Of a DNA stretch of 64,000 nucleotides, positions 41,063-60,874 are shown piece after piece. Within the stretch, counting starts at the first letter, position 1. Each line of letters opens with the position of its first letter. The notes below the pieces were generated by a model. That model had not been told where the DNA came from and searched no databases. It was given only the letters and a program-made list of their open reading frames with translations. Source of the DNA: an uncultured Gammaproteobacteria bacterium (GTDB taxonomy: Bacteria > Patescibacteriota > Microgenomatia > Levybacterales > GWA1-39-11); the NCBI GenBank assembly GCA_964511305.1, contig CAZEEU010000001.1, positions 127,214 through 191,213 on the forward strand, written 5' to 3'. A program made the translations under genes and the position numbers.

Positions 41063-41162
41063 GAAGTAAGTATAAAGAGCTTAATACTTTATTCTTATTG
41101 CTTAATTCTTCATATATTCTATCAACATTGCGCAAGAAAAGCTCATGTGCTAGAGTTGATAT
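41063..41162. promoter_or_regulatory. Longest intergenic spacer in the window (100 bp, AT-rich); probable promoter region for the GT4 gene and/or the plus-strand small ORF
   Basis: It is the only spacer of about 100 bp in an otherwise tightly packed locus. I did not identify a specific motif with confidence. Confidence 0.25.
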
Positions 41163-41408: not shown

Positions 41409-42157
41409 ACCTTCCTCTGTTGAAGCTCCCAAAGCTTTGCGTAAGTAATAAATATCGAAAATGCTTGGTACATACCCTCTATTAATCCGTATACGCCATT
41501 TTTGTATCCTTTGTTTTTTACATAAGAATTGATAAATTCTGTTCCCATGACTCTTAAAAAGCGCCATGGAGCAAGTTGTGGGTGCTTTGATTCAAGACGT
41601 AGCTTTGCTTCAAAAAGAGACCATTCGTTTGTTTTTCTTACCATTTGAGATAAATTTCTGTGCGTAAAGTGTTGTATAGGAGACTCAATTTGATCCATGG
41701 TCCCTTTAACTTTAGGTGTTTCATGAACAACACCTGACCACTCTATAAATTTTTTCCTATAAAATAACCGCTGAACGCGATCTCTAAAATTCCAATCTTT
41801 TCCATAGTAAAAAGTTTTTCGGTGAATAAAGTAGCCAGCTATTTCACTCGTTGGATCATATTGCTTAATTTTTAGAAGTGCTTCTTTTTTAAAAGCATCA
41901 GTTAGCCTTTCGTCTGAATCTAAAAAAAGTACCCATTCCGATGTGGCATGATACATCCCAAAATTCCTTTGATCTGAAAAGTCCTTAAATGCATGCCTAA
42001 CACTCTTAACTTTGTATGAGGTGCATATTTTTTCTGTATCGTGACTATTGCTGCCATCAATCACAATTACCTCCCCAAATCCACGACAAGAGGCTATGGC
42101 ATCTGGCAGAACATCTTCATCATTTCTTGAAATTACTACAACTGTTATATTATTCAT
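41405..42157 (-). CDS. Glycosyltransferase family 2 (WaaE/KdtX-like subfamily)
   Basis: 'ITVVVISRNDEDVLPDAIASC…VIVIDGSNSHDT…WVLFLDSDERLTD'. Confidence 0.85.
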   Translation of the reverse strand: MNNITVVVISRNDEDVLPDAIASCRGFGEVIVIDGSNSHDTEKICTSYKVKSVRHAFKDFSDQRNFGMYHATSEWVLFLDSDERLTDAFKKEALLKIKQYDPTSEIAGYFIHRKTFYYGKDWNFRDRVQRLFYRKKFIEWSGVVHETPKVKGTMDQIESPIQHFTHRNLSQMVRKTNEWSLFEAKLRLESKHPQLAPWRFLRVMGTEFINSYVKNKGYKNGVYGLIEGMYQAFSIFITYAKLWELQQRKV

Positions 42158-44472
42158 TTTTTAAAAGCTCTTATTACCTCAATAATTATTATACCCAATA
42201 TTCCAACCATAAAAAGATAGGTGCCAATAATAAAACTCTCTGGCATATAAGAGAAAACGATTGTACTGTCCCCTTTGGGTACTACAACTCCTCTGAAAGA
42301 ATAGTCTGTTCTAAATATCTTTGAAACCCTACCATTTATTGTCGCTTTCCAGCCTGGATAGTAATTGTCAGTTAGAACTAAAAAGCTTTTTCCAGATGAA
42401 TTAACATTAATTTCAATCCTGTTTGGTTCGTACTTCTTAATTTTTGTAGTTGTCTTTGCATTGAGATCAAGTTGCTCGATCTCCTCCTCAACGAAAGCAT
42501 TATTTTTTGTATCAACAGAAAATAAAGCATCTAACATTTTCTTTTTATCTTGCATGACCATTACATTATTTACAGTAAAAGCTTTGTTCTGGGCATTATT
42601 ATTTTTGTAGGCTCTATAAGAGCTATCTTCATATACTTTTGTGAACTGAGGTAGTGGATACTTGTCGAAGGGAAATGCCCAAGGAAAAGTGCCATCCGAT
42701 ATTTTATGAACGATTGTTTTAACACCAAGAAGAGATATCGCACGTGGTGTGAGATCCGAAGATAATGGGAAATTTACAACAGATCTTTCCGGAAACTGTA
42801 ACTTTCCACTTGAAACATACCCTACGAATTCCCCGTATCTTCCGATGTATAAGGGGTCGTACCCTCGCGGTATTGGTACCCGGTAGTATACAGAATCTTC
42901 TCCCCCCGATAAACCAATTGCTCTATCGTAGTGATTAAGAGAGTTATAGAACTTTGTAATTGGTACCGATACATACACAAGCTTTGGGTCATTAAATGAC
43001 TGCCACTTTGAAGAAAACCTAAGCATTTCAAATATTGATATAAGAAGAACACCAATTATTAAAGCCGTGTATATTCTTTTTTTGTTCATCACATAACCCA
43101 ACACTAATAGTGTTATTGCAACTAATGAAAAACCTACTGGCAGGATCATGTTCTTTTTAGCAATAAGTGCTTTGTCTTGTGACATTAATCCAATAAATGG
43201 AACAACAGAAACAATTAATATGCAGCCAATCAAAATGCACAAAGGTAAAAATACTTTTTTGTTTTTCTTAACAATCAGCTTATTAATTGCATCAAAACCA
43301 AAGCCGCTCAACATAGCAACGGAAAAACTGAAAAGAACTATAATCCTGCTTGCTGCACTTGTCGAGAGAACTGGTACCTTCAGATTTACCAACAAAGTCA
43401 AAAGAGGCGTATCATACGCAAGAAGTAGCGAAAGAAATAAAAGTATAACAAAAAATATCACATGCTTATTCCTAATAACAAATGCTGAACTAATTGCAAA
43501 AAGTAATGTTATTGCTCCTGCATACCCATTCCATTCAGCATAATGCCCGAACCAATCATTGCGAGTTACTGGATTTCCATAGTAATCAGGCGCTATAAGG
43601 GTTGGTAAATATGCCCATGGAATTGCCTCAAACTTCTGAAAAAGCCCACTTCGCACACTTTGCGTGTAAAATTCTATTGAGGGCAAGACCTGTGGAGCGC
43701 AGAGTAATATCCCGAAAAAAACATATTGAAATAAATAAAGGTATCTCCTCTTTTCTTTTTGAAACAACGATCCAAACAGTAAATACATGGATAATCCCAA
43801 TAAGAAGTATAAGCTTGTCTGAAAATGACCACTGAAAAAAGACAGGGGGATGCACAAAGACATAATCGCAGCATATCTGTGCTTTTGAGAGGCCACATAT
43901 TTTTCAATGGCAAAAAGACTTAGAGGTAACGGGAGTATGGCGTAAGCAAGAGTCGCATAACCCATCCATGTAACAATAAATCCACAGAACATGAATGCAA
44001 CAGCTGCCTGAAGACTACCCTTTTCAGATATTTTTAGGGTTCTTGAGAAAATATATGCAAATAGTCCAGCAAGAAGTGGCTGTAACACAACAAGAATTCC
44101 CCACGCAGTAATAAATTTAACAGGAAGAAAGAAGAAAATATTATAAAAAGAAAGAACAGCAGACTGGTAATTAGCTAAATGAGGTGTTCCGGAAAAACTA
44201 AATGGATTCCAAAATGGTATCGATCCGTGCTTTAACTCTTCTATTGCAAAATATCTCCATGGATAAATTTGCCCAATAATATCAGGTTGTGCGTTGTTCT
44301 TTACTGGACCTGCCATGCCTTCGTATTGAGTCCATGGCTGAAAAAAATTGACTTGATAGTCAGATGGATATGGTGTCTTACCGAAAAGAAGGAAAGGGGA
44401 TGCAAAGATTCCCCAAATAAGCAAAATGAAAAGAAAATACTTTAGCCGTATTATGTTTTTTAAATAATCCAT
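42154..44472 (-). CDS. YfhO-family polytopic membrane glycosyltransferase-like protein
   Basis: 772 aa: '…IPFWNPFSFSGTPHLANYQSAVLSFYNIFFFLP…' and the C-terminal '…DNYYPGWKATINGRVSKIFRTDYSFRGVVVPKGDSTIVFSYMPESF' with a terminal TM. Confidence 0.8.
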   Translation of the reverse strand: MDYLKNIIRLKYFLFILLIWGIFASPFLLFGKTPYPSDYQVNFFQPWTQYEGMAGPVKNNAQPDIIGQIYPWRYFAIEELKHGSIPFWNPFSFSGTPHLANYQSAVLSFYNIFFFLPVKFITAWGILVVLQPLLAGLFAYIFSRTLKISEKGSLQAAVAFMFCGFIVTWMGYATLAYAILPLPLSLFAIEKYVASQKHRYAAIMSLCIPLSFFSGHFQTSLYFLLGLSMYLLFGSLFQKEKRRYLYLFQYVFFGILLCAPQVLPSIEFYTQSVRSGLFQKFEAIPWAYLPTLIAPDYYGNPVTRNDWFGHYAEWNGYAGAITLLFAISSAFVIRNKHVIFFVILLFLSLLLAYDTPLLTLLVNLKVPVLSTSAASRIIVLFSFSVAMLSGFGFDAINKLIVKKNKKVFLPLCILIGCILIVSVVPFIGLMSQDKALIAKKNMILPVGFSLVAITLLVLGYVMNKKRIYTALIIGVLLISIFEMLRFSSKWQSFNDPKLVYVSVPITKFYNSLNHYDRAIGLSGGEDSVYYRVPIPRGYDPLYIGRYGEFVGYVSSGKLQFPERSVVNFPLSSDLTPRAISLLGVKTIVHKISDGTFPWAFPFDKYPLPQFTKVYEDSSYRAYKNNNAQNKAFTVNNVMVMQDKKKMLDALFSVDTKNNAFVEEEIEQLDLNAKTTTKIKKYEPNRIEINVNSSGKSFLVLTDNYYPGWKATINGRVSKIFRTDYSFRGVVVPKGDSTIVFSYMPESFIIGTYLFMVGILGIIIIEVIRAFKK

Positions 44473-44487: not shown

Positions 44488-46176
44488 CTATTTTTTAATT
44501 CTTGAACTATATTTTTTATAGATAAGAGAACTGACAATTCCTGTTAGAAATATAAAAGCTACTAGTGAAAGAGCGTTTGAAAGCATCCTCAATTTTGTAT
44601 CAGTAAAAACTATTGAAATCTTATGAACCCCCGGATTCAATTGATAGGTTATAAGCCCTCTATTTGCAGGGTCTTGAAATTCAATATCAAGCTTCTTTCC
44701 ATTGTCAAATACTGACCACCCAGGAAAGTACAATGTGTTTTCCCGAATTCTACCCCCTGAGGTAGTGGTAATTAAATATTCATGATTTATCGATGTTCTT
44801 TTTATTTCTTGTATACTGCCAGTCCCCTCGATAACTTCGGCATTGGCCTTGGCCTCCCTCTCCATAAATCTAACGGACCAAATTGGGGAACTTTCTCCAG
44901 TGTCGGTCGTACCGTGGTAAATATTTTCGTAGAATGAATCCGGAATTACTTTGTATTCTTTTGCCTTCCAATAAGAGAACGTTGGCAAGATAGCAAATAG
45001 CATGAGGCATACAATAACCAACGTTCGCATTTTTCCCTTTTTAACAAAAAGCAAAGTGGAAGGGGTTATAACAGCACAAAGAAAAACCGATAAGCTTAAA
45101 AATCGCCAGGGGAACTGAAATTTCTTAAAAGTGGTAATTACGTCATATAAAAAGTTTGAATACGATAAAGTTAAAAATAATGATGCTGCCAACATAATAA
45201 GCAGACCCATAAAAAATGCCCGATATTCTTTTGACTTACTTCTTATAAATAACAATGGTACCAAAAGGATCCCAAGAACATTTACTAAGCCTATTTGTGT
45301 TGTAAATTGCCCTGTAATTCCATAGCTCCATGGTCCATACAGCAAAGACAACGGGCTAGTGATGAATCGAGTTTTATATTCATCCCCAGTTACGATATCT
45401 CTAAGGGTGAATTTGCCCTCTAAAAATGCAGGAATTACAAAAAAAGAAGAAAGTAAAAATCCTATTAAAAATGCTGAGAAGATAGGTATAAGCCTCTTGT
45501 ACTTTTGCTTACTTACGGCTAGAAAAAGTACGTACAATAAAAATACAGGACAGAACATTAAGCTAATCGCATTATGAGCTAGCAACAATAAACCAAATGC
45601 GCCACTTACACCCACAAGAGACCCACTTAGATATCTTTTATCAGAAAAGTATCTATGAATAAAAAACATTATCAAGGGAGGAAAGATAAATGCCATATGT
45701 TCTCCAATAGCACCTCTCACATAAAGGTCTATGAATCTATATGGCGCATACATGTATATTACGGAACTTATCAATGCATATTCCTCTCCAAACTGCTCCT
45801 TTACCCATAGATACATCGTTAAACCGCTTGCTACAAAGCCTAATGCAAAAATTATTTTCAACGAATCTACAAAAGAAAAACCAATTAGATGAAAAACGGA
45901 AGCAAAATAAGAAGAAAAAGGGTACAAAAACATGAGTACCGGGTGTCCATAACCCCAATTTAAATTTGCTCCCCAACGGGGGAACCATACTCCATCTGTA
46001 AGTCCCAGATAGAAATTAGCAATACGAGCCACATGATCAGTACCATCATGCGTAATAGGTAAACCCGGGGTTAATAGGTTAAATAAAGGTAGTAGACCCA
46101 ATAAAATAATAAGAAGCAAGGATTTATTTTTCATTCTTGATATATTATTTCCCAGGCATATAACTTCCCTTTCCAA
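44488..46176 (-). CDS. Polytopic membrane protein of the uncharacterised GT-C-like 'family X' (paralogs at 50178, 51879, 55215)
   Basis: 562 aa. N-terminal 'HDGTDHVARIANFYLGLTDGVWFPRWGANLNWGYGHPVLMFLYPFSSY…MYLWVKEQFG…YMYAPYRFIDLYVRGAIGEHMAF'. C-terminal 'TLYFPGWSVFDNGKKLDIEFQDPANRGLITYQLNPGVHKISIVF' with a terminal TM. Confidence 0.8.
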   Translation of the reverse strand: MEREVICLGNNISRMKNKSLLLIILLGLLPLFNLLTPGLPITHDGTDHVARIANFYLGLTDGVWFPRWGANLNWGYGHPVLMFLYPFSSYFASVFHLIGFSFVDSLKIIFALGFVASGLTMYLWVKEQFGEEYALISSVIYMYAPYRFIDLYVRGAIGEHMAFIFPPLIMFFIHRYFSDKRYLSGSLVGVSGAFGLLLLAHNAISLMFCPVFLLYVLFLAVSKQKYKRLIPIFSAFLIGFLLSSFFVIPAFLEGKFTLRDIVTGDEYKTRFITSPLSLLYGPWSYGITGQFTTQIGLVNVLGILLVPLLFIRSKSKEYRAFFMGLLIMLAASLFLTLSYSNFLYDVITTFKKFQFPWRFLSLSVFLCAVITPSTLLFVKKGKMRTLVIVCLMLFAILPTFSYWKAKEYKVIPDSFYENIYHGTTDTGESSPIWSVRFMEREAKANAEVIEGTGSIQEIKRTSINHEYLITTTSGGRIRENTLYFPGWSVFDNGKKLDIEFQDPANRGLITYQLNPGVHKISIVFTDTKLRMLSNALSLVAFIFLTGIVSSLIYKKYSSRIKK

Positions 46177-47062
46177 GTCTTCGAATAAGAAAATCCTTAA
46201 CTGCTATTTTTTGCCATGGGCGTCCGGTCAGCAAAATCCTGCCAGCCTCTTTTAGCAGCAACGCTTTTACTTTTGGACTGGCATATTTCATTCCAAAAAT
46301 TAATTTGTTTCGAGTTAGATAGTAATCGTGAAGCGTAGAACCTGAGCCTGAAGATCCTGCGTTATTGTGCCATACAATACCCTTTGGGGCGTATATAAGA
46401 TCGTAACCTTTTCTTATTAATTTCGTACTTAAATCTGCATCTTCATAGTATAAGAAGTAACGTTTATCAAATAACCCTACCTCATTAATGATATTTCTCT
46501 TCAAGAGTAAGCATGCTCCGGTCGCAAATGTAATTTTGCTTTTTTTGTCAAATTGACCCGCATCAACATCGTCTAATCCTATATGCGTTGAAACAACATT
46601 TCCCCAATCAATTTTTCCTCCTGCATACCATATAACCTTTCCGAGTTCTGTTTGCTTATAACGGTCTTTGTGATATTCTCTTCCTTTCGTAAAATAAATT
46701 TTTGGAACGACCCCGGCGATATTGTCAGGTATAATTTCATCAACCAAAACTTGGATGCAACTCATCTCTAACAAACTATCGTTATTCAGTAACAGAAAAA
46801 GGTCGCTGCCATCATTTCGAGTCCTCTCGTAAATCAAGTTATGTCCGCCTGTAAAACCTAGGTTTGTCTCGATTCGTTCGACAACAAGACCAATTTTTTT
46901 ATATTTAGAAACATTTATATCAAGCCTCTCCTTTGAACCGTTATCAAGGACATAAACACTCATTTCAAAACCATCAATTTTTGATTTAAGAAGCGTTTCA
47001 AGGCAATCAACCGTGTCTTGAGAGCTATTATAGTGAAGAATCGAAACGGTAACTTTATGCAT
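46145..47062 (-). CDS. Glycosyltransferase family 2 (rhamnosyltransferase-like subfamily)
   Basis: 'VTVSILHYNSSQDTVDCLETL…YVLDNGS…LLLNNDSLL…FDKRYFLYYEDADLSTKLIRKGY'. Confidence 0.85.
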   Translation of the reverse strand: MHKVTVSILHYNSSQDTVDCLETLLKSKIDGFEMSVYVLDNGSKERLDINVSKYKKIGLVVERIETNLGFTGGHNLIYERTRNDGSDLFLLLNNDSLLEMSCIQVLVDEIIPDNIAGVVPKIYFTKGREYHKDRYKQTELGKVIWYAGGKIDWGNVVSTHIGLDDVDAGQFDKKSKITFATGACLLLKRNIINEVGLFDKRYFLYYEDADLSTKLIRKGYDLIYAPKGIVWHNNAGSSGSGSTLHDYYLTRNKLIFGMKYASPKVKALLLKEAGRILLTGRPWQKIAVKDFLIRRLGKGSYMPGK

Positions 47063-47961
47063 TACGGTAGTACCTTTCGTTGGATTTTGTATATGTTTTT
47101 CTTCAATGAATTTTTTTCTTCTGTTATTTTTTTATCATACTTCCAATACCTAAATTCCCTTCCGATCATCTTTTGGCCCTCTATTAAAATTTTATGAGTA
47201 TTCTTATCCTCAGGATAATTGTTAGCCTCCCAAAGCCTTAGAAAAACTACAAAATGATAAAATGCCTGAAGTAAAGACAAGATAAGACCATGCATCCCAT
47301 CTCGGTAACCCTGTTTTGCAAAATATCGAGTTATAAATTCAGAAAGCGGCATCTTAACAGCATCAATTGATTTATATGCATATCCATTTGAAAGCAAGTT
47401 CTCTGCTTCAGAAACGGTATAAGTCTTGACCATTTTGTTCAAAAATTGTGAGATATTCTCGTAATTTAGATGAAGCATTGGATTTTCAAGCTGTGCCGTA
47501 GCCCCTTCTACTCGTAAAAATTCATGAACATGCTTTTCTTCAAATTTTCCTTTATCTTTCTTAAAAAGTCGAAGCTGTGGATCTGGATACCACCCAGTGT
47601 GCTCAATCCATTTTCCAAATATAATATTTTTTCTTGGTATGAAATATCCATTGACTGTTGACTCATTATCTAAGTGCTCAATTTCTTGTGAAAGCTCATG
47701 AGTAACCCTCTCGTCAGCATCCAAACAAAGTATCCAGCTGTTTGTGGCTTTTGTAAAACCATAATTTTTATTTACATTAAGCATTGGATTATTTGCTCGA
47801 GTAAATACAATCGCACCATTCTTTTTTGCAATTGATGCTGTATCATCGGCAGACGTGTTATCAACAACAATTATCTCTGCGGCAATTTTTTTGACAGAGC
47901 TGATACATTCCTCTATTTTTTTCTCTTCATTAAAGGCTGAAATAACAACAGAAACTTTCAT
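47062..47961 (-). CDS. Glycosyltransferase family 2 (WaaE/KdtX-like subfamily)
   Basis: 'VSVVISAFNEEKKIEECISSV…IIVVDNTSADDT…WILCLDADERVT'. Confidence 0.85.
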   Translation of the reverse strand: MKVSVVISAFNEEKKIEECISSVKKIAAEIIVVDNTSADDTASIAKKNGAIVFTRANNPMLNVNKNYGFTKATNSWILCLDADERVTHELSQEIEHLDNESTVNGYFIPRKNIIFGKWIEHTGWYPDPQLRLFKKDKGKFEEKHVHEFLRVEGATAQLENPMLHLNYENISQFLNKMVKTYTVSEAENLLSNGYAYKSIDAVKMPLSEFITRYFAKQGYRDGMHGLILSLLQAFYHFVVFLRLWEANNYPEDKNTHKILIEGQKMIGREFRYWKYDKKITEEKNSLKKNIYKIQRKVLP

Positions 47962-48009
47962 AATATTAGTGTATCAAAAATAGCTTTCTCTATAATAACA
48001 ATCCCATGC

Positions 48010-49467
48010 TCATTTTTTGGCTCTTATTGCTTTTACCACAAATACAAGAGTCTTAGTCAATTCTTCTCTTGCCATAAAGAACATTGCCCCGGCATACACT
48101 CCCAAAGACAGAATTCCAAAAATAACCATCATAAGAAAAGACGTAACAAAGACACTTGTGACATATGAAAATCCAAACATAAGAATGGCGGCTAAAAATT
48201 GCTTATAGGTTGTTGATATAGCTGAAAATTCAACATAACGTCTTGCAACAAAAAATACCCCAACTGAAGTAAGAGCAACTGCAAATGAAGCAGCAGCAAC
48301 ACCGTTATACCCCATGAGTGGGATGAGAATAAGCGTTGTGCCCCATATCATAATTGTCCAGAAGATCATGAAATACAACGTGACCTTGACCTTGCCAATA
48401 GCATTCAAAAAGTTAGTAAGAGGTGTAGAGACAGATGAAATTACGCTACCAAGAGAGAAGAACATTATTGACATAATTGCAGGTTCCCATTTGTGATAAC
48501 GCGGAATGAAATCTATCAGATAAGGCGAATAGGCAATGATTCCGGCAGCAACCGGAAAGATTGCAAAAGCTATCAGAAAGATTGACTTTTCGATAGCTAT
48601 TTTCAGAGCTGCTCTATCATCTTGTAGTCTAGCAAAAGATGGAAATGTGATTTTTATAATATTATCCATAACTAACCTAAGAGGAAGATAGGCTACCCGT
48701 TGAGCAAACCCGATATATCCAAGTTGTGCTTTTGGAAGTAGACCTCCCAAAAATATTGTTAAAAAATCATCCTTAAAAAGAGCTAGTATGCTGTTTGTCT
48801 GAAAAGGTATTCCAAATGAAATAAGACTTTTAAAAGATTTTTTGTCGAAGCCAAGACCTATCGGCCACGATTGCACCCCATAAGTCGCTACCAATCCGAC
48901 AATGCTTCTAAAAAGAACTGCCAGGATAAAGCTTGTTACACCAAGTCCTGAAATAGCGCATATTACGAGAGTTGCATTATATGTAATATTCTCAAGCACT
49001 TGAGGAACTACTAGTCTATTGTAGTCTAGTTTTCTTTCTAAAATAATGGTTGGAATTGTTCTGAGTGAGGTTAGGAAAAATGAAATGAGAAGTACAACAA
49101 GTAGGATATGCCCAGATTCACCCAACTTGTAAAAGGATGCAAGATTTCCAGACAAAAGGATTGCCGGTACTACAAGGCACAAAACGAGTGCCTGTTGAAT
49201 AGTAAAAACTGTTCGAAGATCTGTCTTGGTAGGCTCTTCTTTCTTCTGTATTAATGAAGCAGCAAGGCCTATATCCTGAAAGTAATTAAAGAAAACAATA
49301 ATTGAAGATACTACAAAAAATGTTCCGAAAGTCTCTGGCTCAAGATAAAGAGTGAGAACTACACTTGAGGCTACACCTAAAAGCTGTATAAGAAATGATC
49401 TGGAAACTAAAGCAAAAACCCCTTTTACAGATTTCGTCGCGATGGCATGCAATTCATTTTCGTCCAT
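48010..49467 (-). CDS. Wzx/MOP-superfamily flippase-like polysaccharide biosynthesis protein
   Basis: About 485 aa with about 14 hydrophobic helices. The track ORF extends to 49539 but would overlap the upstream GT2 by 56 bp. The internal start 'MDENELHAIATK…' at 49467 removes the overlap. Confidence 0.75.
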   Translation of the reverse strand: MDENELHAIATKSVKGVFALVSRSFLIQLLGVASSVVLTLYLEPETFGTFFVVSSIIVFFNYFQDIGLAASLIQKKEEPTKTDLRTVFTIQQALVLCLVVPAILLSGNLASFYKLGESGHILLVVLLISFFLTSLRTIPTIILERKLDYNRLVVPQVLENITYNATLVICAISGLGVTSFILAVLFRSIVGLVATYGVQSWPIGLGFDKKSFKSLISFGIPFQTNSILALFKDDFLTIFLGGLLPKAQLGYIGFAQRVAYLPLRLVMDNIIKITFPSFARLQDDRAALKIAIEKSIFLIAFAIFPVAAGIIAYSPYLIDFIPRYHKWEPAIMSIMFFSLGSVISSVSTPLTNFLNAIGKVKVTLYFMIFWTIMIWGTTLILIPLMGYNGVAAASFAVALTSVGVFFVARRYVEFSAISTTYKQFLAAILMFGFSYVTSVFVTSFLMMVIFGILSLGVYAGAMFFMAREELTKTLVFVVKAIRAKK

Positions 49468-49483
49468 ATGTACTCTTCTTCTA

Positions 49484-50197
49484 TCATATCCTTTTATTGA
49501 GGATGTCAAACCACAAAATAAAACTTTCAAGTACTGCACGGACGACTACAGCTATATTTGCTCCGCTTTGAGCGCCATATTCACGAGGAAAGTGATTAAC
49601 TTCAACTTCTTTTATCTTCAACTTTTTCCTTGTTGCTTTTGCGAGTATTTCAGTTGTAATCATAGCCCCTTCAGAACGCAACGGCATAATTTGCAAAAGG
49701 GCTTCACGCTTGAACATTTTAAATCCACAGTCGATATCTTTAAAATAAAATCTGAAAAAAATGTAATCCCAAATCTTCAACATGTGCATAAGCATATGTC
49801 TGGACATACTGTCGCGTCTCTTTTTTCTAAAACCTATAACAATATCAGAGCCGGGAAGAGCCGCAATAAGTTTTTTAACCTCCGCGAAATCAAATTGTCT
49901 ATCACCATCCGTGAATACAACATACTTATATTTTGCATTTTCAAAGCCTTCCTTAAGAGCTGCCCCATACCCTCTATTTGGGGTGTGGCTGATAACACGC
50001 ACGTTCTTATATTTTTTTGAAAGCTCGAGGCCAATTTGATACGTCTTGTCTGATGAACCATCATCAATAATAAGAATTTCCCAATTTGTAGCAACTTCTT
50101 TAATAATCGGCATGGCATTCTCTACCACATGCTTTACGTTTTTTTCCTCGTTCCAAAAGGGGAAGAATACTGAGAGCTCAGGAAGTTTTTTTTCCAT
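49484..50197 (-). CDS. GT2 polyprenyl-phosphate sugar synthase-like (DPM1/GtrB/CsbB-type)
   Basis: 'LSVFFPFWNEEKNV…ILIIDDGSSDKT…HTPNRGYGAALKEGFENAKYKYVVFTDGDRQFD'. 237 aa. Confidence 0.85.
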   Translation of the reverse strand: MEKKLPELSVFFPFWNEEKNVKHVVENAMPIIKEVATNWEILIIDDGSSDKTYQIGLELSKKYKNVRVISHTPNRGYGAALKEGFENAKYKYVVFTDGDRQFDFAEVKKLIAALPGSDIVIGFRKKRRDSMSRHMLMHMLKIWDYIFFRFYFKDIDCGFKMFKREALLQIMPLRSEGAMITTEILAKATRKKLKIKEVEVNHFPREYGAQSGANIAVVVRAVLESFILWFDILNKRI

Positions 50198-51872
50198 ACG
50201 ATTTAGGTAACATTATACCAAGTAATATAGCAAAAAAAGCAAGTATTGATAGCACATTTCCGACCTTTTCTATGGTGGTTTGTCTGAAAGAAATATCTAT
50301 AATACCCTCCCCTTTTTGGACATTTATATCCATGCCGCGAGGAGCTTGGGTAATTATCCCAGTCTTACCATTTATAGTAGCGTACCATGCAGGAAAGAAA
50401 GCCTGATTGATATGTAAAATTCCATTGGTTAAAAATTTATATTTAATCTGGGTCCCCATTGTCTTCTTTGGAACCTCGGCAATGTATCCCGTGCCAACTA
50501 GTATCTCAAGTTTGGAAGAAGGAAGATCTTCGATGTTTTTTGGTTTGTTAAAGTCCTTTGGCATATATTCATCAGATATTTTTGAGGCAGTATATCGAAT
50601 ATAACTTTGATTTGTATAATATGAAGAATCAAAACTCGTATACTCTTGGGGATTAAATAGCTTCAAATTTAAGAGGATAGTCAAACAACAAATAGCAACA
50701 ACTACTAGAAGTCTTATATTCTGTGAACTTTTAACTACTATATAGGTTGTTCCATACCCTGAAATAATTGCTATTGCCAACGCTATAAAATTTATAAATC
50801 TCCACGGATACTGAATATACGCCATCAGCGGAAAATTTTCCCATACAGGTCCTGAAATAGATAAGCAAAAAAATGATGCAAGAGTCAAAATAACCAGAGC
50901 AACAATTGTTACCTTTTCATGTTTTTCAAATCTATGTTTTGTAAATCTATAACCTAACAGCAAAACTCCCAGCAGCAACAAAACAAGGTTTATTTTCCCT
51001 AATTTAAAACTAAGACCATCCAGACAGCCTGGCACTGATCCACCAAATCCCCACTGACTTTCCCAAAATTGAGAAATACAGACATAGTGATCCGCAAAAT
51101 AAGCGCCTCCACCAAGTTGGGACGAAACATTCGTATAACCCATCTCAAGAAAAGCTGGAATTACGTAAAATGAACTTAAAGCTATTCCCAAAACAATACC
51201 CCCAACAACAAGCAGTAGAAATCTTTTTTTATCTTGAGCAAAAAAAGTCATTGCTATAATTACAAATGGCAGAATTATAAAAAGCATGAGCAATGTGAGA
51301 TTGTGAGAAATTGCTACAAGAAAAATACCAAACGCAAGAACAAAAATTGCTGGAAACGAACGGAAAAAAGATTTACTTTTCTCAGAAAAGAGCATAAAAA
51401 GACCTAAAAGAATCATAGGCAGGAATGCATACGCAAATATCTCTCCAACTGCCCCTCTAACATATAGATTAAGCGCATGATAAGGAAAATAAGCATAAAC
51501 AATTGCACTTACAACACCTGCTGAATTCCCGAATAGTTTTCTACTCAATAAAAACATCGTAATTGGGGCCGCAAGCATTCCCGCAATAAGCATCACTTTC
51601 GTTGCAAAAAGAGAATCAAATCCAATTAGATTAATTAAGCCCCCAAAATAATAAGGAAAAGGTCCGTAAAAATTGAAGATTGGGTATCCATATCCATAAC
51701 CAAGATTTTCAACCCATCTTACCGGAAACATTCCGTGCAAAAGCGAGTTAGACATTTCATAGACTCGCACAACAGTAGTGTTATCGTGAAATGTAAAAAA
51801 ACCTGACTGAAATAACGGAAGGATAGTACCCAACGATAGCAAAATTACTCCGATTATTATTAGTTTTTTCAT
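50178..51872 (-). CDS. Polytopic membrane protein, uncharacterised GT-C-like 'family X'
   Basis: 564 aa: 'FHDNTTVVRVYEMSNSLLHGMFPVRWVENLGYGYGYPIFNFYGPFPYYFGG…YAYFPYHALNLYVRGAVGEIFAY' and the C-terminal '…FFPAWYATINGKTGII…' with a terminal TM. Confidence 0.8.
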   Translation of the reverse strand: MKKLIIIGVILLSLGTILPLFQSGFFTFHDNTTVVRVYEMSNSLLHGMFPVRWVENLGYGYGYPIFNFYGPFPYYFGGLINLIGFDSLFATKVMLIAGMLAAPITMFLLSRKLFGNSAGVVSAIVYAYFPYHALNLYVRGAVGEIFAYAFLPMILLGLFMLFSEKSKSFFRSFPAIFVLAFGIFLVAISHNLTLLMLFIILPFVIIAMTFFAQDKKRFLLLVVGGIVLGIALSSFYVIPAFLEMGYTNVSSQLGGGAYFADHYVCISQFWESQWGFGGSVPGCLDGLSFKLGKINLVLLLLGVLLLGYRFTKHRFEKHEKVTIVALVILTLASFFCLSISGPVWENFPLMAYIQYPWRFINFIALAIAIISGYGTTYIVVKSSQNIRLLVVVAICCLTILLNLKLFNPQEYTSFDSSYYTNQSYIRYTASKISDEYMPKDFNKPKNIEDLPSSKLEILVGTGYIAEVPKKTMGTQIKYKFLTNGILHINQAFFPAWYATINGKTGIITQAPRGMDINVQKGEGIIDISFRQTTIEKVGNVLSILAFFAILLGIMLPKSYGKKTS

Positions 51873-51878
51873 GATAAT

Positions 51879-53534
51879 TTACCTGAATTTCAAAAGAGGC
51901 CTTAAAAGCACAAACAATAAAACTAAAAACGTTAAAATGCTAACTCCGTTAGCTATTGCTCGTGGAAATGTTTCAATGAAAAATAGTTCAACAGAATCCG
52001 CATACTTGCCTGCGCTTATAGTCATAACCCCTTGAGGATTTTGGTAATCTATTTTTGTTTCTACCCCATTTATATATGCTCTCCATCCTGGATAAAATAT
52101 TGTGTTGATTTTAAATACCGTATCGCTCGTAGCAGTAAATTTGAATTTCACTGAATTTGAATTATAAACAGTATTGGAAATTGTAGCATTCCCACTCAGC
52201 ACTTCGACTTTGTCAGTAAAATGTTTGGTTGGCCTGTCTGTTACCCAAAGCGGCATCAATTCTTGCGAGCTTGTAGTCGTTGCTTCATTTGTTAAATAAT
52301 ATTGGTCCGAATAATAACTATATTTCACTGGCCGCGCATAAGGATACACCTGCGCAACAGCAACTATTGCCATGATAAATACTATTATCTTAATTTCTCT
52401 ACCTTCTATTACTAAAAACCCAGCGAGCAGAGAAGACAAAAATCCGAGTTGTGACAATAATGTCCACGGGTAATTAATTTCGGACAGAAGTGGCGTATTG
52501 GTCCAAATAAGCGATGATATTGAGAAAGTCCCAAGAAGGCAAATTACATAACTAAAAAGAATTATTATCGCAAACTTCTTAATAGGAGTCTGTATAAATT
52601 TAGACTTTATAAATGAGAATAAAAGAATAAAAAATGAGACGATAATAACCCCAATCTGTCCCAGTCCAAGCTGATAAGTAAATGCACCTTTTTCTGTCGG
52701 TGTACCATAGTCCCAAGACGGAATGATTAATTTATCAAATGGTACAAAATAGAGATTTCTGTCAGCAATAGGAATTTTTGAAAGTAAAATATTACTTTTT
52801 TCGTACAAAGCCGGGAACCAAAAAAAGAAAGAGAGCCCTGCTCCAAAAAATAAACACAATAAAAAAGTCTGCAGTACGTCAAATCTTTTTTCTATAAATA
52901 TTCGAATACCAATAAATAAAACAAGAACAGGCAGGAAGAGGATGGTCATAATATTATGAGTCATGACCAAAGCACCAATACTAACTGACAACATAAGGAC
53001 TGTAATTCGGGAGAAAGGGGACTCAAATAATCGTAAGGCAAAAAGTAATATGAACGGAAATAAAATCATAGCAATACTCTCCCCCACCGACCCTCTAACA
53101 TACAAATCTACCATTCTATAGGGTAGATATATGTAAAGAATAGAAGATACAATTCCCGACCATTTATTACTCCATAACTTACTGGATGCTAAATACATAA
53201 AGACAGAAGATAGCAGAACACTAAGTATAAAAAGTAATTTAATACTTAATATAAAACTATGAAGAAAAAGATTAAAAATAACGCCAATATAATAAGGCAT
53301 CGGATATGCGAAATTAAAAAGAGGATATCCATATCCAAAATTTAAAGCGCCGCTGTAACGAGGTGGGAACTGCATGTCTCGTAGGGTTCTGAACATATCG
53401 CCAAGCCTAACAACGGCCCACTCCCCATCGTGTGTTGGAAAATATCCTGAATTAAAATATGGAAGAATAACCGGCACGCAGAGAAGAAGAATTATTAAAA
53501 AAGGTAATGTCTGGAATAATAACTTTTTCAACAT
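51879..53534 (-). CDS. Polytopic membrane protein, uncharacterised GT-C-like 'family X'
   Basis: 551 aa: 'THDGEWAVVRLGDMFRTLRDMQFPPRYSGALNFGYGYPLFNFAYPMPYYIG…YIYLPYRMVDLYVRGSVGESIAM' and the C-terminal 'IFYPGWRAYINGVETKIDYQNPQGVMTI' with a terminal TM. Confidence 0.8.
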   Translation of the reverse strand: MLKKLLFQTLPFLIILLLCVPVILPYFNSGYFPTHDGEWAVVRLGDMFRTLRDMQFPPRYSGALNFGYGYPLFNFAYPMPYYIGVIFNLFLHSFILSIKLLFILSVLLSSVFMYLASSKLWSNKWSGIVSSILYIYLPYRMVDLYVRGSVGESIAMILFPFILLFALRLFESPFSRITVLMLSVSIGALVMTHNIMTILFLPVLVLFIGIRIFIEKRFDVLQTFLLCLFFGAGLSFFFWFPALYEKSNILLSKIPIADRNLYFVPFDKLIIPSWDYGTPTEKGAFTYQLGLGQIGVIIVSFFILLFSFIKSKFIQTPIKKFAIIILFSYVICLLGTFSISSLIWTNTPLLSEINYPWTLLSQLGFLSSLLAGFLVIEGREIKIIVFIMAIVAVAQVYPYARPVKYSYYSDQYYLTNEATTTSSQELMPLWVTDRPTKHFTDKVEVLSGNATISNTVYNSNSVKFKFTATSDTVFKINTIFYPGWRAYINGVETKIDYQNPQGVMTISAGKYADSVELFFIETFPRAIANGVSILTFLVLLFVLLRPLLKFR

Positions 53535-53535
53535 A

Positions 53536-55170
53536 TTAATTTCCTACAATTCTATATGCAATTCTTCCATCCGGAAAGCGAATCTCTCTTAGCGGGGCCG
53601 CTACCGGAATTTCTTGCTCAGTGCCAATAAGCAACGTTTTTGGCAGCTTTTCATCACTTATAAAGTTAATATTTCTAAATTCATACTTACCTATTTTTCT
53701 AGAGAAGCGATCGACCTGACCATTTCCGTTTGTATCCCAATTTTTTTGATACCACGAGGGATCTATCTTGTTATAGAAAAGATAGTAAATATAAGGCTGA
53801 TCATATATATATGTCATAATTACTCTGTCATAGTTATCTTCAAGCCCATGAGCAGCAATAATAACTTCCTTATTTCCGTATTGCCAAAAGTAGCCTACTT
53901 CTCGAGGTGTAACTGAATAATATTGATTCAAATAATAGGTAAAATTAATTGCAAAAATTAGAAATCCAAAACTAATCGCAATAGCCCTGTAATTGGCCTT
54001 CTTAATCTTATTGATTATTCCGTAAAGAGATGCAGCTCCATTTGCCACTAAAAATATAAGACCAGGTACCATTCCGATTGCTCTTACTCCATGAGGTGTA
54101 CCAGTAGTTACTGCTGCTGGCAGTGGTGCAATTATCAAAAGGGCTAGCATTGCAATTATCTTTTTTGAGGGGTTCTTAAATACTGAAATAAGACCCCAAA
54201 TCAAAAGAGGCAATTCAAAAAGATACATCATGCCCATGTCTTTTGCATGGTGATGCAGGCTTCCAGCACCTATGGTAAATAGATAATTGAAATCAAAATG
54301 TGTTAGATAATTCTTTTCAGCCGTGTATAGGTAATAAAATCTTCTATTATGAAATACTTGCCCAATAACATTCCCAGTGCTCTTGTCATTCTGCAATTGT
54401 GCAAGTTGATTTTGCAATCCTTCTGATTCTCCAAAAATTGAAACCATAGAAAGTCGTGCTTTGGAACCCTCAGGATTTAAGAAGCCTATATATATAGGTA
54501 GAGAGAATATAAAAATTATTAGTGCAGAGATAATAAGCTGTTTTTTGTAGACAAGTAGTTTTTTTATAAACAAACTTATTAATACCAGAAGAAAAATAGG
54601 AACTACCAATCTAAAACTGTGGTAAGAATACAAGCAGATTACAAATGATATCGAAGAAAGTACAAGGTACCACCTACTTTCTAGTCCTTTAATAAATAGA
54701 TAAAAGGCAAGTAAAAGAAAGAACAATCCCACATTCCCCTCATATGCTGCTCTAGAAAATTGAAGATGCCAGGGTGATATAGAAAGAAAAAAAGCTGAAA
54801 ATAGAGCTACTATCAGTCCTAACTTATGATCTTCTTTATCAAAAAGTTTTTTTACCAAATAGAACATCACAATTACAGATAAAAATCCGAAAAGGGCTGA
54901 GGGAAAACGGACCGCAAATTCAGTAAGTCCGAAAATAGCAACTGGCAAGACATCTAAGTAAATATATACTGGGGGCTTGTAGTCATCAAATGAGCGAAAC
55001 TCTATCGGAAAAGAAGTTCCGTATTCGTCTTTTCCGGTTTTTAATATTGAATATGCATTGTACCCGATGCTTGTTTCGTCCCAATTAAGACTTGGAGGGT
55101 TTTGTCCTAACATGAAAAATCTGAGAATAAATGCAAGGACAACAATCCCTATAAGGTATTTGCTTTTCAC
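53536..55170 (-). CDS. GT-C glycosyltransferase, GT39/ArnT-PMT-like (subfamily A)
   Basis: 544 aa: '…SLNWDETSIGYNAYSILKTGKDEYGTSFPIEFRSFDDYKPPVYIYLDVLPV…'. Confidence 0.85.
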   Translation of the reverse strand: MKSKYLIGIVVLAFILRFFMLGQNPPSLNWDETSIGYNAYSILKTGKDEYGTSFPIEFRSFDDYKPPVYIYLDVLPVAIFGLTEFAVRFPSALFGFLSVIVMFYLVKKLFDKEDHKLGLIVALFSAFFLSISPWHLQFSRAAYEGNVGLFFLLLAFYLFIKGLESRWYLVLSSISFVICLYSYHSFRLVVPIFLLVLISLFIKKLLVYKKQLIISALIIFIFSLPIYIGFLNPEGSKARLSMVSIFGESEGLQNQLAQLQNDKSTGNVIGQVFHNRRFYYLYTAEKNYLTHFDFNYLFTIGAGSLHHHAKDMGMMYLFELPLLIWGLISVFKNPSKKIIAMLALLIIAPLPAAVTTGTPHGVRAIGMVPGLIFLVANGAASLYGIINKIKKANYRAIAISFGFLIFAINFTYYLNQYYSVTPREVGYFWQYGNKEVIIAAHGLEDNYDRVIMTYIYDQPYIYYLFYNKIDPSWYQKNWDTNGNGQVDRFSRKIGKYEFRNINFISDEKLPKTLLIGTEQEIPVAAPLREIRFPDGRIAYRIVGN

Positions 55171-55214
55171 TAGTTTATTGTAGCTTTTTTATTCGTTTTG
55201 GTATAGTAGTTATA
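55171..55214. promoter_or_regulatory. Divergent intergenic region (strand switch); presumed divergent promoters
   Basis: 44-bp AT-rich spacer between a minus-strand GT39-like gene and a plus-strand family-X gene. A 'TATAGT' -10-like hexamer lies about 7 nt upstream of the plus-strand ATG. Positional inference only. Confidence 0.3.
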
Positions 55215-56864
55215 ATGAAAAAAATTAAACCCTACCTGGCAATTATCCTCCTATCCCTTCCTCCATTAATTTACATTTTTCTGAATCCAAATTTACCACA
55301 TACCAGTGATGGACTCATGCATGTGGCAAGGTCTGCTGCGTATCTCAACGAGATCCAGGCTGGTCAGTTCCCCATAAGATGGGCGCATCAATTTGATTAT
55401 GGCTATGGCACTCCAATCTTTAACTTTTTCAATCCTTTGCCATATGCTTTTGGGGCTCTTCTGCTCTCTATCGGAATAAATCTTGCAACAACTCTTAAAA
55501 TAGGTTTTGTTGTAACACAGCTTCTTTCCGGAATTTTTATCCTTCTTTTTGCAAGAACATTTTTTAAAAATTCCAAGACGGCGTTTTTAGTTGCTGTCAT
55601 GTATCAATATGTACCTTTTAGACTCGTTGAGATGCATACACGTGGCGACATAGGATGCTTATACTCGTACATGACTTTTCCATTACTAATGTATGCAATA
55701 ACGGTTTTTTTGAAAAAAAATACAATACCCGGATTTTTACTCTTAGGTCTAGCGTCGGCTTTACTACCTTTAGGGCACAATATTAATGGGTTTGTTTTCT
55801 TCTGTCTCGGCTCTTTATACGTACTATTTGCTACAAAAGACGTCAAAAAAATTCTTGTAACTTTTTTGGCAATGGGATTTGGATTACTTTCTATTTCGTA
55901 TTTCTTGCTCCCAGCCCTTACAGAGCTTAAGTACCTCAATGGCTACATATTCAGTAAGCACCTGTTCTATATGCATTTTCCGGCAATTTACAAATTGCTA
56001 CTTCCGAATATCACAAATAACCCCTCTTTAAGAGTTGCTGAAGTATCTGTTCAGGTTGGATTATTTAATGTAGCTTCCCTCATTGGCTTTATATACCTTT
56101 TTGCTAAAAAAAGAATCGCAAAGGAAAATTGGAAAATGAGCTCCTATCTTCTTGTTGTAGGACTTCTCACTTTTCTTATAATGCTCCCAATAACAAAACC
56201 TCTCTGGGAACATATTGAGTACCTCAGGCAATTTCAATTTCCTTGGCGCTTTCTAGGAATACTGATTTTTGTAACTCCAATGGCCGGCGGAATAGTATTT
56301 GAAAAATTAGATTTTATAAAAAAGTCCAATATAAAATATTACGTACTTTTGGCTCTTATTATACTAAGCACTGTTTTTTATTGGGGCCCATATCAAGGCT
56401 TTCAGAAGATTGACGAGAACTACTATAGGAATTTTCCGGGATCGACAAACTACTTTGCTGAGGTAAATACGATATGGATGGAAAAGGAACCACAAGAGTA
56501 TCCCAAAAAACGTGTTGAAATTGCAGCAGGGAATGCACAAATTTCAAATATAACTATATTACCAGAACGACATACATATACTGTTTTGTCAAAAGAGGAA
56601 AGTACAGTTATCGACAAGACGTACTTTTATCCAGGGTGGAAAGCGTACGTGAATGGGATCGATACTCCAATAGAGTTTCAGGATGCAAACTATAGAGGGC
56701 AGATCACTTTCAAAGTTCCAACAGGCAACAACAATGTAGTTGTTGCTTTTGAACAAAACAAAATAATGAAGACCGGAAATATAATAACACTAACTTCTAT
56801 TGCCTCTGTTATATTAATGCTAGGATATTACTTCATCAAAAAATATGGCAAAAGGAAAAAATGA
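55215..56864 (+). CDS. Polytopic membrane protein, uncharacterised GT-C-like 'family X'
   Basis: 549 aa: 'HTSDGLMHVARSAAYLNEIQAGQFPIRWAHQFDYGYGTPIFNFFNPLPYAFG…YQYVPFRLVEMHTRGDIGCLYSY' and the C-terminal 'TYFYPGWKAYVNGIDTPIEFQDANYRGQITFKVPTGNNNVVVAF' with a terminal TM. Confidence 0.8.
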   Translation: MKKIKPYLAIILLSLPPLIYIFLNPNLPHTSDGLMHVARSAAYLNEIQAGQFPIRWAHQFDYGYGTPIFNFFNPLPYAFGALLLSIGINLATTLKIGFVVTQLLSGIFILLFARTFFKNSKTAFLVAVMYQYVPFRLVEMHTRGDIGCLYSYMTFPLLMYAITVFLKKNTIPGFLLLGLASALLPLGHNINGFVFFCLGSLYVLFATKDVKKILVTFLAMGFGLLSISYFLLPALTELKYLNGYIFSKHLFYMHFPAIYKLLLPNITNNPSLRVAEVSVQVGLFNVASLIGFIYLFAKKRIAKENWKMSSYLLVVGLLTFLIMLPITKPLWEHIEYLRQFQFPWRFLGILIFVTPMAGGIVFEKLDFIKKSNIKYYVLLALIILSTVFYWGPYQGFQKIDENYYRNFPGSTNYFAEVNTIWMEKEPQEYPKKRVEIAAGNAQISNITILPERHTYTVLSKEESTVIDKTYFYPGWKAYVNGIDTPIEFQDANYRGQITFKVPTGNNNVVVAFEQNKIMKTGNIITLTSIASVILMLGYYFIKKYGKRKK

Positions 56865-59181: not shown

Positions 59182-60874
59182 AATTATAATACTTGCTGTC
59201 ATTTTTCTCCTTGCCTTTGCATTACGATTTCACAAATTAGATTCAATCCCAAATGGATACAGAGAAGATGAAACATCCATTGGATACAATGCCTATTCCG
59301 TACTTAAAACCGGCATGGATGAGCATGGAAATAAATATCCACAAAATTTCAAGGCATTCGGGGAATATAAACTCCCTGGATACGTGTATGCAACAGTTCC
59401 TTCTGTTGCAATATTTGGCCTAAATCCTTTTGGCGTAAGATTTATCTCTGCAATTTCTGGATTTCTTATTGTCATTGTTTCTTTCTTTCTTTCAAAAGAA
59501 ATACTTAAAAATCAAAAACATTTATCAGAATGGGGGCCTATCGCCATTTCACTTCTTTTGGCAGTTAACCCTTGGCTTATTTTCTTTTCAAGATCAGCAT
59601 TTGAAGTAACGCTTGCAAATCTTTTTATTATTTCAGGGATATTACTTTTTTTGAAAGGAAAAGAAAGTCAGAAGATGGTCTACTTCATGGTTTCTGCAAT
59701 TCTACTAGCCTTTTCTATATACACATACAATATAGCTCGCCTTTTTACACCAATCCTTTTATTATCTTTAATCCTGATTTATTGGAAAAAAGGCAACTCT
59801 ATTAATGCAAGGACCGCAATTTACTCCTTGGGTACTTTTGCAATAATATTAATTCCTTTTATTTATGGTGCTATTGCAAAAGGTGGAGCTGACTCAACTC
59901 TTGGTACCCTTATTTTTAGTAGTGCGAAAATTCAGGCACCATTACAGGAATTTAGAAGTTATTTTACTGAGATAAGTCCGCTTATGTCAAAGTTATTATT
60001 TAACTACTACTTTATGACATTTTGGCTGTATATCAATAATGTAGTCTCGCATTTTTCTGTTAGTTATTATTTTGTGAATGGAGATGTTTTAGGCAGTTCT
60101 ACTTCCGGGAATGTTGGCCAGTGGTATATTTTTGAACTTCCACTTATAGTCTTGGGAGGAATATTATTCTTCAAATCCAAAACAAAAGAGTCATTGCTAA
60201 TACTTTTATGGGTTGTTGAGCTTATTTTAGTAAGTAGCATTACAAGGGATCCACCTCAGGGCACCCGGACATTCTTTTTGTTATTTCCGATATCTCTACT
60301 TTCATCTATAGGACTAGTTGCAGCAATCGGTTACTTTTCAAAGCTTAAGCAACAAAAAACTAAATACGCAATAAGCCTTTTTGCCAGCGCTATCTGTCTT
60401 TACTATGTAATCTATTTTTTGGCATCGTACTTTGTAAGATTTCCTATTTTTTATGCAAAATATTGGAATACGGCAGATCGTGAGGTTGGGAAATTTATTA
60501 AAGAAAATGGCAGCAAATATAAGACGGTTGTTATTGATCGGGATTCAAGTATAAACTACTCTATAATACTTGCAGAGCTTTTGTATCCTCCTGAAAAATT
60601 TATTAAAGAAGCTGTATGGTCACCTGATGACTCAGAAGGTTTTTCATATCCAACTAAATTTTCAAATATTGAAATTCGTCCAATCGACTGGGAAAAGGAT
60701 ATCAATATGAAAAATCAGCTACTTATCACCTCCCCTGACGGAAAAAAAGCTGACACGGGAATACTTAAAACGATAACTTATCCAAAGCGTCCGGTGGTCT
60801 TTAATAAAGGTCAAGAAATTATGCGCTACCCAATCGAAGAACCTGCTTACTTAATAATTGAAACTAATCGTTAG
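59165..60874 (+). CDS. GT-C glycosyltransferase, GT39/ArnT-PMT-like (subfamily A)
   Basis: 569 aa: '…YREDETSIGYNAYSVLKTGMDEHGNKYPQNFKAFGEYKLPGYVYATVPSV…'. It overlaps the upstream YfhO-like gene by 17 bp. Confidence 0.85.
   Translation: MLKKSKIIILAVIFLLAFALRFHKLDSIPNGYREDETSIGYNAYSVLKTGMDEHGNKYPQNFKAFGEYKLPGYVYATVPSVAIFGLNPFGVRFISAISGFLIVIVSFFLSKEILKNQKHLSEWGPIAISLLLAVNPWLIFFSRSAFEVTLANLFIISGILLFLKGKESQKMVYFMVSAILLAFSIYTYNIARLFTPILLLSLILIYWKKGNSINARTAIYSLGTFAIILIPFIYGAIAKGGADSTLGTLIFSSAKIQAPLQEFRSYFTEISPLMSKLLFNYYFMTFWLYINNVVSHFSVSYYFVNGDVLGSSTSGNVGQWYIFELPLIVLGGILFFKSKTKESLLILLWVVELILVSSITRDPPQGTRTFFLLFPISLLSSIGLVAAIGYFSKLKQQKTKYAISLFASAICLYYVIYFLASYFVRFPIFYAKYWNTADREVGKFIKENGSKYKTVVIDRDSSINYSIILAELLYPPEKFIKEAVWSPDDSEGFSYPTKFSNIEIRPIDWEKDINMKNQLLITSPDGKKADTGILKTITYPKRPVVFNKGQEIMRYPIEEPAYLIIETNR

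Follow-up and report, generated by a model that had tools for sequence, protein, structure and literature searches.

Four related membrane proteins and their genes

Within a 64,000-nucleotide stretch of contig CAZEEU010000001.1 (the whole of it here 'the window', in whose numbering all coordinates are given) lie four genes for multi-spanning membrane proteins, named X1 to X4 in coordinate order and together called family X, which a preliminary description had presented as paralogs of an apparently undescribed, GT-C-like family. The observation is largely right and so is the GT-C reading, but the claim of novelty is not: this is no new family, it is one that is catalogued, experimentally uncharacterised and common in Microgenomates bacteria. 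The four open reading frames (ORFs) were found where they had been placed, at 44488-46176 (minus strand), 50178-51872 (minus), 51879-53534 (minus) and 55215-56864 (plus), with 549–564 amino acids (aa) each. The genes are listed below; residue numbering, here and throughout, follows X2.

44488..46134, minus strand: X1, PF10131-type GT-C paralog, probably 548 aa; the longest ORF reaches TTG 46176
50178..51872, minus strand: X2, PF10131-type GT-C paralog, 564 aa; the 3' member of a tandem pair
51879..53534, minus strand: X3, paralog, 551 aa; the 5' member of the tandem pair, without a Pfam match of its own
55215..56864, plus strand: X4, paralog, 549 aa, on the strand opposite to X1–X3; S29 and C144 variants

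The true start of X1 is probably ATG 46134 and not TTG 46176, because the other paralogs align from Met15 of the longer X1 reading and public gene calls give a protein of 548 aa. Judged by sequence comparison, the paralogy of the four goes far beyond chance and is not a coincidental pattern, since the pairwise phmmer E-values among them run from 1e-46 to 1e-61; identity to X1 is 27–29% over the full length, X3 and X2 are 28% identical, also over the full length, and the four-way alignment has 50 invariant columns. A hidden Markov model (HMM) of the four, run against the 47 window ORFs of at least 150 aa, retrieved no further full member of the family; of the three YfhO ORFs in the window it hit two, weakly (E 3e-15 and 5e-14).

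The motifs by which the family had been recognised are present, though in a looser form than was first written. In the N-terminal one X4 has SD for HD and X3 has RY for RW, and the 'G.FP.RW' element of X1 sits one residue out of register. In the second motif X2 has PYH..N where PYR..D had been given, and X4 reads MHTRG..GC and so is without the Glu. The C-terminal beta domain with its F/Y-F/Y-P-x-W....N-G element, of YfhO type, and the transmembrane (TM) helix that ends the protein are there in all four. In X2 these features lie as follows.

51681..51788, minus strand: X2 residues 29-64, first extracytoplasmic loop signature HD..T.V.R...G.FPVRW....GYGYP with D30, R36 and R52, invariant columns
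51441..51497, minus strand: X2 residues 126-144, Y.Y.PY......YVRG..GE, outer loop between TM3 and TM4, with R139 and E144
50286..50510, minus strand: X2 residues 455-529, C-terminal extracytoplasmic beta-sandwich with FFP.W....NG
50196..50276, minus strand: X2 residues 533-559, terminal TM helix, then a K-rich cytoplasmic tail

A place between two catalogued families

Pfam already has a model for most of these proteins. PF10131 ('PTPS_related; membrane protein'; gathering cut-off 26.4 bits) matches X1 at 47.6, X2 at 44.0 and X4 at 39.3 bits, exceeding the cut-off by 13–21 bits and outscoring every other GT-C model for the three. X3 gives no Pfam match at E≤1 and does not reach the PF10131 cut-off, while most of its orthologues at 48–83% identity do carry the label. 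Large-database searches returned, at E≤1e-5, 730 relatives of X2, 635 of X3 and 213 of X4; PF10131 is annotated on 118 of the 120 top X2 relatives and, for X3 and X4, on most of the best-scoring ones, and NCBI already applies the family name '6-pyruvoyl-tetrahydropterin synthase-related' to members. Protein P0274 (NCBI, JGI, ENA, Logan) is 100% identical to X3, and assemblies of many metagenomes contain this locus, with its genes labelled PF10131, YfhO and PMT_2. An exhaustive profile search of 1.84 billion cluster representatives sizes the family at 24,981 proteins with E≤1e-3, 15,172 with E≤1e-10 and 7,788 with E≤1e-30, the last figure being a count of 50%-identity clusters. The family is thus both large and already catalogued, and 'undescribed' falls. 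Pfam lists PF10131 in the GT-C clan CL0111 with 'function unknown' (PMC7801869). A match to an already characterised family had been named in advance as fatal to the original claim; with a family that is catalogued yet uncharacterised, the claim is weakened and not abolished.

Some relatives are noted for their own sake. P0451, a partial homologue that is 38% identical to X4, bears the label Candidatus Pacearchaeota archaeon, which may point to an occurrence in DPANN archaea or to a binning error. In each of P0121 (1116 aa), P0122 (1093 aa), P0145 (3329 aa) and P0196 (1670 aa) a single chain carries at least two complete family X modules, which could reflect either genuine fusion of tandem genes or artefacts of gene calling.

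The family had also been thought distinct from YfhO, and that view gives way to homology. With hhalign, a 37-sequence family X alignment matches the three YfhO proteins of the window at 98.4% probability (E 8e-15, 349 columns), and the C-terminal domains match with E-values of 5e-8 and 2e-8. The Asp of 'HD' (D30) aligns with the invariant Asp of the YfhO P-x-P-x-D motif, and RW...GYG.P aligns with YfhO W-N-P...G-x-P, so that the earlier statement that the motifs do not match the YfhO pattern holds for the strings and not for the profiles. When the window ORFs were searched all against all, X1–X4 fell into a single connected group with the three YfhO proteins. Shared with YfhO, then, are a homologous TM core, the first-loop Asp, a C-terminal beta domain with F/Y-Y-P-G-W...N-G and the terminal TM helix; and csbB-yfhO resembles family X in being an operon with a GT2 gene of the polyprenyl-phosphate sugar synthase type.

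The differences are no less clear. The YfhO proteins of the window have 754–778 aa against 549–564 for family X, which is shorter by ~210–230 residues, and their loop-1 sequence pattern is unlike that of family X. Between the TM-core match and the C-terminal match family X does not have YfhO residues ~406–650, the stretch with the additional TM helices and the greater part of the outer region. For Bacillus subtilis YfhO, 13 TM helices and an extracellular loop of 389 aa are described (PMC5836110), against 12 TM helices and ~125 aa for the outer domain in family X; the long YfhO architecture, taken as ~750–850 aa with 13 TM helices and an extensive extracellular portion ahead of the final TM helix, is therefore not that of family X. 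To the Pfam YfhO model (PF09586, cut-off 28.5 bits) X1 scores 29.6, only just enough and less than it scores against PF10131, and X2, X3 and X4 have no match to it.

Could X1–X4 nonetheless constitute a GT-C family apart from all those catalogued, with the Pfam match reflecting similarity at the level of the clan only? Several features would fit. In the window proteins only positions 1–318 of the 621 in the PF10131 profile are matched, and ten distant relatives likewise match from position 1 to ~320, at 21–75 bits, the same being so of every relative tested. The match begins at X2 residue 66, downstream of the HD...RW...GYG.P signature; the C-terminal domain matches the YfhO profile and not that of PF10131 (in several distant relatives the last domain matches the C-terminal end of the YfhO profile); X3 is silent in Pfam; and none of the four is covered by an NCBIfam model. 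Set against these are the above-threshold PF10131 scores of three of the paralogs, the annotation already borne by nearly all the top relatives of X2, and the homology to YfhO, which together make a separate family distinctly unlikely. As far as sequence can place them, X1–X4 are a compact subgroup between two catalogued families, PF10131 and YfhO.

Fold, topology and the conserved outer face

The GT-C fold that had been suggested for these proteins was borne out by Foldseek and by comparison of structure models with solved GT-C enzymes, on which the multi-TM core of the family X models superposes. The top matches in the fold comparison are the oligosaccharyltransferases AglB, STT3 and PglB, the closest solved structures, and Foldseek returns the same set; their sequence identity to family X is 9–16% and their C-terminal domain is unlike that of family X, and enzymes using a monophosphate-linked donor score nearly equal to AglB and STT3. 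Profile searches of the PDB with the 4-sequence and 37-sequence alignments found no solved-structure relative by sequence. The AlphaFold2 model of X3 (predicted local distance difference test score 87.0, predicted template modelling score 0.89) shows its helices and strands in the same succession and matches the same GT-C enzymes, from which it follows that X3, though without a Pfam match, is also a GT-C protein. Towards other GT-C families by sequence there is little. No STT3 match was found in Pfam, and NCBIfam archaeo_STT3 gives 15.6 bits against a cut-off of 450; PMT_2 (Pfam PF13231, cut-off 26.1 bits) gives 17.9 for X1 and nothing for X2–X4; and family X differs from ArnT, PMT and PMT_2 in having no loop-1 motif of the DE...KPP type.

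With the helices of the model mapped onto the 37-sequence alignment, the predicted architecture is of 12 TM helices, with an extracytoplasmic beta-sandwich of ~125 residues and a terminal TM helix. The short loops presumed cytoplasmic are rich in Lys and Arg (2.9 per 10 residues, 3.0 per 6 and 4.0 per 8), the C-terminal tail has 2.8 per 7, and short outer loops hold only invariant residues. Because the short loops assigned to the inside are so enriched, both termini are taken to be cytoplasmic (an N-in topology). The model then puts all the invariant polar residues on the outer face. The first outer loop has two helices, with D30 just before the first of them and R52-W53 together with G-Y-G-Y-P between them. 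D30 itself, just after TM1 and opposite the Lys/Arg-rich loops, is invariant, with counts of 37/37, 116/117 (one gap) and 116/117 (one gap).

Down to 24% identity the family keeps a core of D30, R52-W53, G62, P130, R139-G140, H190, P239-A-x-x-E243, P356-W357-R358 and P494-x-W496. The invariant Arg, Asp and Glu residues that had been proposed as potentially catalytic thus fare unevenly: conserved, outward-facing Asp and Arg are indeed there, but the Glu of 'GE' (E144) is S, C, G or A throughout the X4 orthogroup, and the Glu that is nearly universal is the one in PAxxE, which had not been flagged. In every GT-C enzyme studied an Asp stands in the first external loop (EL1), and EL2–EL5 supply residues that bind phosphate or metal, one of them an Arg directly ahead of TM10 (PMC7801869). 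The published loop pattern has the EL1 Asp, an Arg-acid pair in EL2, a polar pair in EL3, an acid in EL4 and, in EL5, an Arg that precedes TM10 and binds the donor phosphate (PMC7801869). The family X core corresponds to this pattern by loop position, which is to be distinguished from a measured three-dimensional superposition.

A conserved block of genes

The genes next to X1–X3 are, in the order in which the minus strand is read:

49484..50197, minus strand: GT2, 237 aa, polyprenyl-phosphate sugar synthase-like, Pfam Glycos_transf_2; overlaps the X2 stop by 20 nucleotides (nt)
48010..49467, minus strand: MOP/Wzx-type flippase candidate, 485 aa, Pfam Polysacc_synt_3 with E 8e-49; longest ORF to 49539
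47062-47961 and 46145-47062, minus strand: two GT2 genes between the flippase and X1, within the conserved block
42154..44472, minus strand: YfhO paralog, 772 aa, directly 3' of X1 and the end of the conserved block; Pfam YfhO 77 bits, weak match from the family X HMM

X3 and X2 are a true tandem pair (gap of 6 nt) and the GT2 gene does adjoin it; the pair had been placed downstream of that gene but, the strand being minus, is upstream. The likeness of this GT2 to DPM1 stands. It resembles polyprenyl-phosphate sugar synthases, and its best matches among solved structures are ArnC (9e-17), dolichol-phosphate mannose synthase (DPMS; 5e-14) and GtrB (7e-11).

The longest ORFs overstate two genes, the flippase gene (48010-49539) and a PMT_2 gene (53536-55170). 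Public gene calls give 485 aa and not 509 for the flippase, which abolishes its overlap with the GT2 gene, and 525 or 544 aa for the PMT_2 protein.

The core order X3-X2-GT2-MOP flippase is kept in all of eight related loci from Levybacteria and Microgenomates, in which X2 identity is 40–62%. Four other Microgenomates genomes (L001 and L010-L012) have the full block X3-X2-GT2-MOP flippase-GT2-GT2-X1-YfhO, and L001 shares the divergent X4-YfhO-PMT_2 arm as well. The L001 contig (CAZHDZ010000001.1, 211 kb) is syntenic with 42–61 kb of the window, at protein identities of 62–83%, through PMT_2, YfhO, X4, PMT_2, X3, X2, GT2, Wzx, X1 and YfhO. Its label, 'uncultured Gammaproteobacteria bacterium', is probably wrong, since the other relatives are Levybacteria or Microgenomates.

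From the PMT_2 gene down to a GT2 gene at 41405 the intergenic distances are only -31 to +48 nt, and so they are again between the GT4 and YfhO_a genes; such gaps and overlaps are operon-like and consistent with long co-transcribed units. The minus-strand array of genes is broken by a single gap of 342 nt (41063-41404). On the opposite strand in that gap is a DUF5652 ORF of 81 aa with two TM segments (41163-41408, plus strand; 51.7 bits).

More widely, Pfam scans show the window to be an island of glycan synthesis, with genes for GT2 and GT4 glycosyltransferases, epimerases, aminotransferases and methyltransferases. Twenty-three of its ORFs have at least 8 predicted TM segments, and most of these are PMT_2, YfhO, PF10131 or AftD-like proteins (at least seven PMT_2, three YfhO, four PF10131 and one AftD-like). 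Multi-TM ORFs without a Pfam match are at 3451-6786 (1111 aa), 7519-9585, 25171-26814, 28070-29584, 32861-34849, 34852-36090 and 60864-62507; two more without one, 12318-13808 and 13805-15274, are paralogs of each other. Inside the island there is also an ORF of the 23S rRNA-intervening-sequence family (21453-21818, minus strand; 121 aa, 122.5 bits). An ORF of 104 aa (3140-3454, minus strand), for which four or so TM segments are predicted and Pfam gives no match, is situated between the AftD-like gene and the 1111-aa ORF, and could encode a small transporter or flippase-like protein. The window has no GtrA-type small flippase, its small ORFs being the DUF5652 one, the 23S rRNA-intervening-sequence protein and this 4-TM ORF.

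The company these genes keep also bears on the inherited name. That X1–X4 serve pterin metabolism, as the name would have it, or are non-catalytic membrane scaffolds, has nothing in its favour apart from the words '6-pyruvoyl-tetrahydropterin synthase-related' and is highly improbable: a Pfam scan of X1–X4 finds no 6-pyruvoyl-tetrahydropterin synthase domain, the fold is a 12-TM GT-C one, the Asp at the catalytic position is invariant in diverse relatives (116/117, one gap), and the whole neighbourhood encodes glycan synthesis.

A proposed function

The explanation preferred here, to which a probability of about 0.7 is given, is that X1–X4 are anciently diverged paralogs of PF10131, within the GT-C clan, forming a compact YfhO-related subgroup that transfers a polyprenyl-phosphate-linked sugar to an envelope acceptor. 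The adjacent GT2 would load a sugar from a nucleotide sugar onto polyprenyl phosphate at the cytoplasmic face, the adjacent MOP-family protein would flip this lipid-linked sugar across to the outside, and there the family X enzymes would each pass the sugar on to an acceptor in the envelope, be it a glycan or a protein. D30, in the first outer loop at the catalytic position, would act on the acceptor or on a metal ion; R52, R139, H190 and R358, with E243, may hold the donor phosphate or a metal ion, to go by their positions in the loops; and the beta-sandwich may help to bind an acceptor glycan. What would set the four paralogs apart from one another is their acceptor or their linkage.

Precedents exist for such a division of labour. 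The csbB and yfhO genes form a GT2/GT-C operon required for lipoteichoic acid glycosylation (PMC5836110), and it is the model for this operon, itself derived from genetics only, that the proposed GT2/flippase/GT-C scheme parallels. In the three-component systems (GtrA/GtrB/Gtr*; CsbB/GtcA/YfhO; and ORF15/ORF14/ORF12 of Citrobacter youngae, with GT136) the genes for a lipid-phosphate sugar synthase, a flippase and a GT-C enzyme stand together, and in Citrobacter youngae the flippase is of the MATE family (PMC11127046). The present block likewise joins GT-C genes to that of a synthase-like GT2, with a candidate flippase beside them. The present block differs in that two GT-C paralogs precede the GT2 and flippase genes, and in its additional two GT2 genes, third paralog and YfhO.

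A number of points weigh against the proposal of polyprenyl-phosphate-linked sugar transfer by PF10131-type enzymes. MOP/Wzx proteins classically flip diphosphate-linked oligosaccharides and not monophosphate-linked sugars. The family assignment has its own soft spots, namely the absence of a Pfam match for X3 and the partial coverage of the PF10131 profile, with modest scores. Literature searches on PF10131, PTPS_related, IPR018776 and COG5617 brought up one bioinformatic mention and two transcriptome tables, and no functional or structural data; for YfhO itself the role was assigned by a genetic study of 2018, which states that biochemical evidence is lacking (PMC5836110). The residue roles offered above follow from loop position only.

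The Wzx-type neighbour invites the chief competing explanation, in which these enzymes transfer an oligosaccharide en bloc from a polyprenyl-diphosphate carrier which that neighbour has flipped, and act in the manner of an oligosaccharyltransferase, a ligase or a polymerase. The best structural matches are oligosaccharyltransferases, a Wzx-type MOP protein is a conserved neighbour, and the several cytoplasmic GT2 and GT4 genes of the cluster could build an oligosaccharide. A motif scan, on the other hand, found no WWD, W[WY]D or D.D in any of X1–X4, so the WWDxG and DxD hallmarks of oligosaccharyltransferases are wanting, as is any profile match to STT3; Pfam scans found no initiating phosphoglycosyl transferase among the window ORFs scanned; the immediate neighbour is a GT2 of the ArnC/DPMS/GtrB kind; and the fold scores hardly separate oligosaccharyltransferases from monophosphate-using enzymes. 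En-bloc transfer is accordingly considered unlikely.

Specialisation among the paralogs

The proposed transfer of polyprenyl-phosphate-linked sugars by four paralogs raises the matter of what sets them apart, and the orthogroups differ in ways that are fixed by lineage. X1 has the full set of core residues, and both it and X4 have Arg at 132 and at 358. The X2 orthogroup has H132 with R358, and the X3 orthogroup (117 sequences) has R132 with, always, T, I or V at 358, and Y or F at 53; the tandem partners X2 and X3 thus show a reciprocal, lineage-fixed swap of basic residues at 132 and 358. In the X4 orthogroup (27 sequences) position 29 is Ser, in addition to the replacement of E144 already mentioned. 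Since the rest of the core is preserved in each of the lineages, the paralogs are read as specialised enzymes and not as decayed copies. Decay was considered for X3 in particular, which has neither R358 nor a Pfam match, and was ruled out, its other core residues being invariant across the 117 orthologues and its model being a confident GT-C one.

X2 has a further peculiarity in the long outer loop EL4 (HFVC...GC.DG), where the X2 orthogroup has C265 and C283 almost without exception and X1, X3 and X4 have neither, which suggests a lineage-specific disulfide. In other GT-C enzymes the counterpart of this loop covers the active site.

The retention of the X3-X2 pair in the eight related loci, the two-module P0121 and P0122 and the reciprocity of H132/R358 with R132/T,I,V358 prompt a bolder thought. 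The pair may be an obligate two-subunit GT-C enzyme which, with the GT2 and a MOP flippase for a monophosphate-linked sugar, makes up an envelope glycosylation machine specific to Microgenomates and without a characterised counterpart. This is speculative, and rather unlikely.

Outlook

The immediate value is corrective: genes of this kind are to be read as PF10131/YfhO-like GT-C glycosyltransferases, and not as pterin enzymes or as members of an unlabelled family. The compact Microgenomates subgroup acquires a residue signature (D30, R52-W, G-x-G-x-P, R139-G, H190, PAxxE243, PWR358 and PxW496), and the conserved eight-gene block names the likely partner enzymes. Signature, outer-face topology and gene block together make the large PF10131 family testable. 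For the organisms themselves, the crowding into one 64-kb window of 23 ORFs with at least 8 TM segments, most of them GT-C-like, suggests that glycosylation of the envelope is a major investment for these small-genome bacteria.

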